DNA of 6,033 nt from a virus (Duplodnaviria > Heunggongvirae > Uroviricota > Caudoviricetes). Positions 2,904 through 3,858 of the stretch are shown piece after piece; position 1 is the stretch's first letter; each line of letters opens with the position of its first letter. The stretch spans positions 1 to 6,033 of the IMG/VR virus record IMGVR_UViG_2563366955_000008, one strand, 5' to 3'. The notes below the pieces were generated by a model. The model was not told where the DNA came from, ran no database searches, and worked only from the letters and a program-made list of their open reading frames with translations. Made by a program: the position numbers and the translations under genes.

Positions 2904-3059
2904 GCAGAATATTTTGCTGAAAAATGAGGAATGGCCACGCGGGCGGATAACACGAAATCCTGCGAACTGGCGAAACGTAAGTGAATAAAAGTAAAAACCC
3001 CGTTTGTTGGCACCAAGCGAGGTTTTGTGTTTCTGACCTTGAGTAAGGCAAGGGAGAAC

Positions 3060-3242
3060 ATGGCGAAGTGTAAACGAATTCTGTTGAGGTTGACTATGAA
3101 AAATGGCCTTGAACTGAAAGCGCCTGTAACTGATGACATCAGCAGAGCACTGGCTTTTGCCATTAAGTGGGTGGCGGTCGGTGTTGCTGTGTCCCCGATG
3201 CTGTATGGGCTGGCAAAACTGGTCATTGCGTTGAAATCGTGA
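3060..3242 (+). CDS. Small hypothetical protein, 60 aa, basic N-terminus and hydrophobic C-terminal segment (probable membrane protein); function unknown
   Basis: ATG 3060 preceded by AAGGCAAGGGAGAAC (SD AGGGAG). Protein [60 protein letters not shown]. Same strand as, and contiguous with, the lysis operon. No family recognised; could be non-coding. Confidence 0.4.
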
Positions 3243-3256
3243 AGGGAGGATTAAGC

Positions 3257-3388
3257 ATGTCAGACAAACTCATAACGCTGGCGAAGATCCTCTGTGTAAT
3301 TGTCGGCATTTCATTTTCACTAATGCTGGTTGCTCTTTTTCTTTCCATGGCCTGGATGATGTTGTCTTCGTCGGGGTTGCTGGGGTGA
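3257..3388 (+). CDS. Small hydrophobic membrane peptide, 43 aa; function unknown
   Basis: Strong SD GGGAGGA 6-7 nt upstream of ATG 3257. Protein [43 protein letters not shown] is almost entirely one transmembrane segment. Its stop TGA (3386-3388) overlaps the GTG (3385) of Rz in a GTGA arrangement, suggesting translational coupling. Confidence 0.45.
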
Positions 3389-3858
3389 ACATAAACCGAA
3401 TGCTTTCCGCGTTTATCGTTATTCTGCTGGTGGCCTGTGGTGCGCTGTGGATGGCAACAGACCATTACCGTGATAACGCGATTACCTACAAAGCGCAGCG
3501 CGATAACAAAGCCAGTGAACTGAAGCTGGCGAACGCAACCATTACTGATATGCAGGTGCGCCAGCGCGATGTTGCTGCGCTCGATGCAAAATACTCGAGG
3601 GAATTAGCCGATGCGAGAGCTGAAAATGAAACTCTTCGCGCTGACGTTGCCGCTGGTCGTAAGCGCCTGCGGATCAACGCCACCTGTCCAGGCTCCGTGC
3701 GTGAAGCCCCCACCACCTCCGGCGTGGATAATGCAACCGGCCCCCAACTGGCAGACACCGTTACACGGGATTATTTCACCCTCAGAGAGCGGCTGATGAC
3801 GATGCACAAGCAACTGGAAGGGGCACAGGACTATATCCGCACTCAGTGCCTGAAATAA
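3385..3858 (+). CDS. Rz: Rz i-spanin (inner-membrane spanin subunit), 157 aa from GTG 3385 (alternative start ATG 3400)
   Basis: Near-colinear with lambda Rz: N-terminal TM segment then [73 protein letters not shown]...[31 protein letters not shown] 3385 gives the N-terminus MNINRM with a positive charge before the TM, as in lambda MSRVTA. Confidence 0.92.
3611..3796 (+). CDS. Rz1: Rz1 o-spanin (outer-membrane lipoprotein spanin subunit), 61 aa, fully embedded in the +1 frame of Rz
   Basis: Translation [61 protein letters not shown] matches lambda Rz1 (lipobox LVVSAC, Pro-rich mature region [14 protein letters not shown]). SD GAGGGA lies 8 nt upstream of ATG 3611. Confidence 0.9.

Follow-up and report, generated by a model that had tools for sequence, protein, structure and literature searches.

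Lambdoid phages can carry small envelope proteins that are variably present among relatives and are encoded at module junctions, such as the morons bor and lom and also HK97 gp15. Morons are expressed in lysogens from a promoter of their own and are followed by a terminator. Small membrane proteins have also been described in lysis itself. Mu gp25, the 'releasin' (DUF2730), is a small membrane-tethered protein that is required for lysis in a system with a signal-arrest-release (SAR) endolysin (PMC9239132). Lcc6 of LambdaSo, a single-pass membrane protein of about 65 amino acids (aa) and unknown family, is needed beside a pinholin, a SAR endolysin and Rz/Rz1 (bioRxiv 10.1101/2024.01.23.576932). 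Here we describe two small open reading frames (ORFs), ORF1 and ORF2, which lie between the SAR endolysin gene R (2370–2903, plus strand) and the i-spanin gene Rz (3385–3858, plus strand; Pfam PF03245, E 2e-47, and phrog_13) in IMG/VR virus record IMGVR_UViG_2563366955_000008. The DNA that we analysed, positions 1 to 6,033 of this record (6,033 nucleotides (nt), hereafter the window), is the late region of a lambdoid prophage of Escherichia coli; many sequenced strains match it at 100% identity. Both ORFs are already in the databases as hypothetical proteins and form a very common pair. Our tentative reading, plausible although somewhat short of probable, is that they encode inner-membrane proteins that are expressed late and have an accessory part in the lysis step, ORF2 being coupled to Rz in translation. 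In its favour are the place of the genes in the operon, the terminator 5′ of them, their translational chaining and the conservation of residues for helix packing.

Two conserved small genes separate R from Rz

When coordinates were read from the sequence, the R–Rz gap measured 481 nt. ORF1 (60 aa, ATG 3060–3062 to TGA 3240–3242) and ORF2 (43 aa, ATG 3257–3259 to TGA 3386–3388) both lie on the plus strand and were defined by sequence, PGAP, PHROG and selection analysis. Each has a strong Shine–Dalgarno sequence on the same strand that can be read from the sequence, AAGGGAGAA at 3050–3058 for ORF1 and AGGGAGGA at 3243–3250 for ORF2, and that of ORF1 was kept in 33 upstream variants. In RefSeq the proteins are WP_001446668.1 (ORF1) and WP_001280932.1 (ORF2), PGAP hypothetical proteins that occur at 100% identity in many genomes. 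ORF1 matched phrog_1115 over residues 1–60 (E 3.7e-42) and ORF2 matched phrog_4906 over residues 1–43 (E 2.1e-23), both of which are PHROG families of unknown function. Searches of Pfam, NCBIfam and PADLOC with ORF1 and ORF2 recognised no family, and the Pfam search with ORF2 returned nothing but a sub-threshold match to DUF3930. The initial annotation had likewise recognised no family, and this holds for curated families, the two PHROGs carrying no function. A profile search with the ORF1 family against 1.84 billion representative proteins retrieved 21 relatives, all short and none with an extra domain hinting at function, and a profile scan of genome contigs with the ORF1 alignment gave no confirmed locus. 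In the library of papers searched, none names either ORF by accession, PHROG identifier or peptide string, and a survey of 279 Shiga toxin (Stx) phage genomes describes the lysis cassette without them.

The two-ORF region had initially been given a left-hand limit of 3027. The GTG there would give ORF1 its greatest possible length (71 aa), but this start is unsupported, as it lies inside the T-tract of the hairpin described below. The GTG reads CTG in related loci, and distant homologues keep the N-terminus from ATG 3060.

A set of 224 related IMG/VR loci supplied 34 unique alleles of ORF1 and 39 of ORF2. No frame disruption was found in either ORF across the 224 loci. Pairwise ratios of nonsynonymous to synonymous substitution (dN/dS, NG86) were 0.27 for the ORF1 alleles and 0.30 for the ORF2 alleles, and variable sites at codon positions 1, 2 and 3 numbered 14/5/26 and 27/17/32, respectively. 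Replacements were conservative in the sense frame, with a mean BLOSUM62 score of +0.85 for ORF1 and +0.47 for ORF2. By these measures of sequence variation, ORF1 and ORF2 are plus-strand genes under purifying selection. It is extremely unlikely that the region is not plus-strand coding and holds a minus-strand protein (ORFs 2846–3226 and 3223–3465) or just an RNA or spacer. The antisense frame over ORF2 is indeed open in 39 of 39 alleles, with a dN/dS of 0.33, but it has its wobble positions in common with the sense frame, and antisense stops are impossible there, since a hydrophobic NTN codon becomes ANN in the opposite strand. Replacements in the antisense frame were non-conservative (mean −0.26 over ORF1 and −0.40 over ORF2), the extent of the open antisense frame differs widely among loci, and in phage 933W it is broken into two ORFs. 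Over ORF1, the antisense frames contain stops in 3 to 34 of the 34 alleles. An Rfam scan of the window gave STnc100 as the sole credible match, with no known RNA family in the R–Rz gap. With the frames intact and the minus-strand frame accounted for, selection, PGAP, PHROG and hydropathy bear out the earlier description: both ORFs are genuine, conserved genes on the plus strand, have good ribosome-binding sites and encode small membrane proteins.

ORF1 and ORF2 are predicted single-pass membrane proteins

ORF1 has 10 K/R against 3 D/E (net +7, with about +4 in the soluble part) and consists of a basic N-terminal helix followed by a moderately hydrophobic C-terminal helix (residues 30–58) that ends in KS. 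Its best 19-residue Kyte–Doolittle window scored 1.88 (residues 38–56), and an AlphaFold2 model of moderate confidence (mean predicted local distance difference test score, 74) placed helices at residues 2–14 and 21–59. The predicted topology is N-in and tail-anchored, with an N-terminal part of about 30 residues in the cytoplasm. Full-length relatives have in common the motif YKR..RLxMK[ND]G.E..AP (RLxMKNG in the window), and C-termini in the family are of two types, ...LKS and ...RWW. Tandem paralogues of the ORF1 family occur at loci L231 (244–737) and L165 (2480–2950).

ORF2 is laid out as an N-terminus MSDK..K, a hydrophobic core at residues 11–36 and a tail SSSGLLG. Its best 19-residue Kyte–Doolittle window, at residues 11–29, scored 2.89, and the protein is predicted to be a single transmembrane helix with a cytoplasmic N-terminus and only about 7 residues beyond the membrane. 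The alignment held 11–14 invariant columns. S2, D3, G17, S19 and F20 are invariant and C13 and S21 nearly so, and C13, G17, S19 and S21 make up a conserved small-residue face on the helix.

We then compared the two proteins with described lysis factors. As predicted for ORF1, Mu gp25 has a cytoplasmic soluble part; a SAR endolysin is encoded a few genes away, and gp25 acts at the membrane step of lysis (PMC9239132). It differs in being 99 aa long, with the transmembrane segment N-terminal and N-out and the C-terminal domain anionic (PMC9239132), whereas ORF1 has 60 aa, a C-terminal transmembrane segment and a cationic N-terminal part. The releasin topology is therefore found in neither protein, the hydrophobic segment of ORF1 being C-terminal and its soluble part positively charged, and ORF2 being without a soluble domain. 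Mu is also without a holin, whereas the window cassette has a pinholin, and neither ORF1 nor ORF2 gave a Pfam match to DUF2730 at E ≤ 0.1. Lcc6, compared by description, is likewise an extra small membrane factor of lambda-like lysis. Its transmembrane segment, however, is N-terminal and its gene lies far from the lysis genes, near xis; moreover, Lcc6 is essential for lysis in LambdaSo, whereas many working cassettes do without ORF1 and ORF2.

Dual-start holins (lambda S107/S105 and phage 21 S71/S68) are also small membrane proteins of lysis cassettes, and ORF1 has two possible starts, Met1 and Met13, each with a Shine–Dalgarno-like sequence, of which the longer form would have about four extra basic residues. 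The candidate internal start (3086–3098, plus strand) consists of GAGG at 3086–3089, 6 nt 5′ of the Met13 ATG at 3096–3098. GAGG precedes the conserved Met13 by 6–9 nt in four ORF1 lineages; the Arg10 codon is AGG in 33 of 34 ORF1 alleles, as it is in three lineages with identities of about 45%, and conservation of Met13 itself is at least 90%. Going by these sequence features, it is possible that a 48-aa ORF1 isoform is made from Met13. Both spacing and topology are nevertheless unlike those of known dual starts, as the candidate starts are 12 codons apart instead of 1–3, ORF1 has one C-terminal transmembrane segment, and the cassette already has an S21-type holin with its own dual start. No match of ORF1 or ORF2 to the holin families of PHROG or Pfam was obtained, though the window's S gene matched in the same searches.

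The features of an i-spanin are absent as well, with only about 7 residues after the transmembrane segment in ORF2 and 2 in ORF1. ORF2 as a decayed N-terminal anchor of an i-spanin was unsupported, a profile–profile comparison with eight Rz N-termini giving a probability of 1.2%. In pairwise local alignment with lambda Rz and RzpD, ORF2 did beat composition-preserving shuffles (p 0.001–0.003), and by our own reading of both sequences the best-matching stretch of ORF2 and the Rz anchor has only about 63% DNA identity.

The R–Rz gap is a slot with variable content

In lambda, R and Rz directly overlap, and the same is true of rrrD/rzpD and rrrQ/rzpQ in the K-12 prophages DLP12 and Qin, in which no such ORFs were found between rrr and rzp when homologues were sought there. 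Relative to these three the ORFs are an insertion, as had been noted initially with respect to lambda. Examination of the related loci revealed three arrangements. The order R, ORF1, ORF2, Rz was found in 110 loci. In 44 loci Ant was followed by ORF2, the arrangement of Stx phages including 933W, and 38 of these loci extend over both R and Rz. A third arrangement, ORF1–ORF2 without a match to the window's R or Rz, was found in 36 loci. Read from gene order, the R–Rz gap is a cargo slot filled by ORF1 or by the Ant antirepressor, with ORF2 constant just 5′ of Rz. In 933W (L227, AF125520.1), an unannotated 48-aa ORF2 homologue, MGWLMISDKL..., lies between ant and Rz at 2186–2332 of the locus (27423–27569 of the record). 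Of the 276 phage records with ORF2, many have no annotated feature under the match.

Loci of the type of L170 have the order phrog_217 holin, soluble GH108-type endolysin, two small soluble proteins, hairpin, ORF1, ORF2, lipoprotein, cos and terminase, with ORF2 directly 5′ of the gene for the lipoprotein (60 aa, phrog_7528). The same ORF1–ORF2 pair was found behind a phrog_217 holin and a GH108-type endolysin in 36–39 loci. In phiSTEC1575-Stx2k, an ORF1 relative (about 48% identity) follows an M15 endolysin and is itself followed by the same lipoprotein, without ORF2, and a further ORF1 relative follows tail-fibre genes. The initial annotation had linked the pair to the pinholin/SAR-endolysin system. 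Because the same pair also adjoins non-SAR endolysins, with ORF1 relatives after the M15 endolysin and the tail-fibre genes, it is not specific to that system. The earlier description of the ORFs was correct, but its interpretation was too narrow.

Homology between the window and a Stx phage ends at 2998 and returns exactly at 3257, the start of ORF2, and homology with the L170-type loci spans 2987–3355. The breaks at 3257 and 3355 indicate that ORF2 is the joint of an ORF1 block and an Rz block. We assigned ORF2 to the Rz block because it stays when Ant replaces ORF1, as in 933W, so that treating the two ORFs as one insertion, as was done at first, is not supported. A conserved spacer directly 3′ of the R stop codon (2903–2963, plus strand), delimited by sequence comparison, has 79–82% identity to the segment 3′ of the ORF1–ORF2–lipoprotein set in L170-type loci and is kept after R and before ant in Stx phages. 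The spacer is probably a module-junction sequence, and these 60 nt may serve different modules as a common junction during their exchange.

At a coverage of at least 80%, ORF2 was present in 1,693 of 5,426 complete E. coli genomes (about 31%), with up to 11 copies each, and ORF1 in 1,044 of them (about 19%). Both families are tiny and confined to Enterobacteriaceae; relatives of ORF2 were found in E. coli, Shigella, E. albertii, Citrobacter and Cronobacter. Two loci, L046 and L062, contain a partial tandem duplication, ORF1–ORF2–ORF1 (residues 23–60)–Rz. The duplication yields database 'proteins' (P0079, P0094 and P0097) in which a frameshifted ORF2 is fused to the C-terminal two-thirds of ORF1.

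ORF2 may be translationally coupled to Rz

The Rz start GTG (3385–3387) lies over the ORF2 stop TGA (3386–3388), forming a GTGA overlap on the plus strand at 3385–3388. This overlap, which the initial annotation had pointed out, was confirmed from the sequence, although the right-hand limit of 3400 that it gave for the two-ORF region is that of the alternative Rz ATG, and ORF2 itself ends at 3388. From GTG 3385, Rz has 157 aa (MNINR...), whereas PGAP and RefSeq pick ATG 3400 (152 aa). In an alignment of N-termini, the Arg of MNINR fell on the invariant Arg of lambda, RzpD, 933W and the other Rz N-termini compared, and locus L148 has ATT at the position of ATG 3400. Since GTG 3385 restores the invariant Arg and L148 lacks the ATG, GTG 3385 is the better-supported of the two starts that had been proposed for comparison. 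The PGAP call is probably five codons short by this sequence evidence, and a likely mis-called RefSeq start of Rz is thereby corrected.

Two classes of ORF2–Rz junction were found. That of the window reads GGG GTG A ACA TAA ACC GA ATG, and in the other the ORF2 stop is followed by 7 nt and then ATG AAC CGT (MNRVLC...). The ORF2 of Stx phages begins within the stop codon of ant (TGATG) and ends 7 nt before the ATG of Rz. ORF2 was located 14–22 nt 5′ of Rz in nearly all of about 160 loci with both genes, insertions of about 0.9 kb being present in a few. The geometry of both junction classes allows translational coupling. Ribosomes ending ORF2 in the window would halt on the Rz start codon in GTGA, which would couple the synthesis of Rz to the translation of ORF2; for Stx phages the corresponding chain would run from ant through ORF2 to Rz.

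It is conceivable, though we consider it rather doubtful, that ORF2 is mainly a translated leader that supplies the Rz start with ribosomes and may also draw the mRNA to the membrane, with a nearly functionless peptide and with ORF1 as separate cargo. Such a leader would account for the GTGA overlap and the 7-nt gap of the other class, and the last ORF2 codons (GGG GTG A or CTG GTG GGG TGA) give a G-rich stretch 5′ of the Rz start. The recombination joint within ORF2, with Stx homology returning at 3257 and L170-type homology ending at 3355, and the retention of ORF2 with Rz when ant replaces ORF1 also fit. The peptide itself, however, is constrained, as seen in its dN/dS of 0.30, its 11–14 invariant columns (S2 D3 and G17 S19 F20 among them) and its conservative replacements. 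ORF2 also occurs without Rz, 5′ of an unrelated lipoprotein gene, and lambda Rz is expressed without ORF2, being coupled to R instead.

A terminator-like hairpin precedes ORF1

A terminator scan and folding identified an intrinsic-terminator-like hairpin at 2994–3026, which consists of an A-tract and a G+C-rich stem and is followed by TTTTGTGTTTC to about 3036. An A-tract flanks one side and a T-tract the other, and this symmetry suffices for the hairpin to serve either strand. A hairpin was located 5′ of 12 of 12 ORF1-family sequences compared, with differing loops and compensatory changes at 2 of 10 pairs; the 12 include the tandem paralogues of L231, each with its own hairpin, and a locus in which the hairpin comes after the terminator of another gene. 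Predicted energies in other alleles ranged from −11.8 to −25.6 kcal/mol. The window hairpin has one C·A mismatch and a predicted energy of −12.0 kcal/mol, compared with −18.9 to −21.6 kcal/mol in close alleles of the R–Rz slot.

The hairpin ends only about 30 nt 5′ of the ORF1 ATG, and a consensus-only scan together with our own reading showed no sigma-70-like plus-strand promoter site in 2903–3059. No terminator-like hairpin was found 3′ of ORF1–ORF2 or between ORF2 and Rz. Because a promoter would not fit between the hairpin and ORF1, we infer that both proteins would be produced solely from the Q-antiterminated late transcript, as lysis takes place. The gap region was assigned to the late operon since STnc100 (Rfam RF02076), a short RNA of the lambdoid late promoter region, matched the left end of the window (1–105) in the Rfam scan. 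A second strong terminator-like hairpin, at 1156–1184 just 5′ of the holin gene, indicates that several terminators punctuate this operon. The hairpin-plus-gene unit suggests how cargo genes could be limited to antiterminated late transcription.

The hairpin also bears on whether the pair is a toxin-like hydrophobic peptide module, of a type I toxin–antitoxin style or an abortive membrane toxin, in which the hairpin would end an antisense RNA over the ORF1 start. Its A-tract/T-tract structure could terminate minus-strand transcripts and its tight spacing to the gene is kept in all lineages; ORF2 is small and hydrophobic (43 aa, best window 2.89) and ORF1 is cationic. Nevertheless, a consensus scan showed no minus-strand promoter-like site within ORF1, a candidate −10 element opposite Met13 is not kept in distant lineages, Rfam gave no family match in this region, and the module lies in a co-directional late operon and is chained to Rz. 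We regard this explanation as very unlikely.

The main alternative, possible but unlikely, is that the genes are moron-type cargo, serving the lysogen or the infected cell in ways unrelated to lysis, such as superinfection exclusion at the inner membrane or membrane protection, and placed in a permissive junction of the late operon. Small single-pass exclusion proteins exist, HK97 gp15 being an example. Like morons, ORF1 and ORF2 are absent from lambda, DLP12 and Qin and are polymorphic for presence among otherwise similar cassettes, and ant substitutes for ORF1 in the same slot. Elsewhere the same module lies in the region after the lysis genes and before terminase, the ORF1 relative after tail-fibre genes is at a classic moron site, and the window has other cargo nearby (an iraM-like gene, a DUF1737 gene and a TonB_C lipoprotein gene). 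Unlike in morons, no promoter-like site was seen 5′ of ORF1, and the conserved terminator is 5′ and not 3′ of the genes, the opposite of a promoter–gene–terminator layout. In addition, a translational chain ties ORF2 to Rz and, in Stx phages, to ant as well, and the PADLOC search was without a match.

A possible accessory role in lysis

Under the accessory-lysis reading, the R–Rz gap would be a mobile late-operon cassette composed of the terminator-like hairpin and two genes for small inner-membrane proteins. The two peptides would be non-essential accessory factors of the membrane step of lysis, making helix–helix contacts with phage membrane proteins such as the holin/pinholin, the SAR domain or the Rz anchor, and they would tune the timing or efficiency of lysis and perform no core step. 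The conserved small-residue motifs in the transmembrane segments of both ORF1 and ORF2 are consistent with such contacts, and Mu gp25 and LambdaSo Lcc6 provide precedents for small membrane proteins of this sort, although the features that define a releasin are lacking in ORF1 and ORF2. Several observations weigh against this role. The hairpin of the window is mismatched and weakened, and the proposed late-only expression comes from a consensus scan and from geometry. Functional homology is lacking, with no match in Pfam, NCBIfam or PADLOC and with PHROGs that carry no function. ORF1 and ORF2 are dispensable for lysis, given that the cassettes of lambda, DLP12 and Qin are without them. Finally, the holin/endolysin types that accompany the pair are of three unrelated kinds, and tail-fibre genes adjoin an ORF1 relative, a distribution that fits portable cargo equally well.

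If ORF1 and ORF2 do act in lysis, then they would add to the recent evidence from Mu gp25 and LambdaSo Lcc6 that holin, endolysin and spanin are not the full parts list of lambda-like lysis. ORF2 is present in most Stx-phage lysis cassettes, and toxin release from these phages depends on phage lysis. As a peptide chained to the spanin gene, ORF2 is thus a cheap and concrete target for testing.

We also considered that the ORF1 family, with ORF2 and/or the 60-aa lipoprotein, could be an unrecognised envelope-disruption or spanin-substituting module. The idea is that the set occupies the usual spanin position 3′ of the endolysin and that no spanin was found there. A crude spanin scan, which recovered Rz, Rz1 and the TonB_C lipoprotein in the window, detected no i-spanin-like ORF, no unimolecular spanin and no lipoprotein besides the 60-aa one in 39 L170-type loci. 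In the complete phiSTEC1575-Stx2k genome it detected no i-spanin-like ORF and no unimolecular spanin, and the sole other lipobox match there was an implausible 43-aa ORF inside a tail gene. The net charge of +7 and the amphipathic N-terminal helix of ORF1 would fit a membrane-disrupting peptide. If this were true, ORF1–ORF2 of the window would be a second, partly redundant envelope factor fused onto the canonical Rz/Rz1; we consider it improbable. The 60-aa lipoprotein (L170, 2840–3022; L228, 2655–2837; L232, 22465–22647) has a mature part of about 30 aa with 3 further Cys, and its PHROG is one of unknown function.

Neighbouring genes

The remainder of the window was annotated in the same way. 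At the left, an ORF for an IraM-like anti-adapter (111 aa, 131–466, minus strand) was taken from the annotation of an identical genome. The iraM-like gene is located between the Q/late-promoter region and the lysis genes, an arrangement that is the same in phiSTEC1575-Stx2k, and the DUF1737 gene lies left of the pinholin gene. The S21-type pinholin (1223–1438) was identified by matches to PF04971 and phrog_20/9876. Between pinholin and endolysin lies a DUF1327/YdfR-type ORF of 297 aa (1440–2333). About 100 residues at its N-terminus match DUF1327 (YdfR), the C-terminal extension is highly variable between loci (from 113-aa versions to 297 aa), and in an identical genome PGAP treats it as an incomplete pseudogene. 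Rz1, the o-spanin lipoprotein (3611–3796, plus strand), is embedded in Rz in the +1 frame and was recognised from the ORF listing and its lipobox LVVSAC. A lipoprotein with a TonB C-terminal domain is encoded 3′ of Rz at 4169–4495. Its best PHROG, phrog_1267, carries the label 'Rz-like spanin', which looks mistaken because the protein matches TonB_C. To the right of this gene lie the cos site and then the small terminase subunit.

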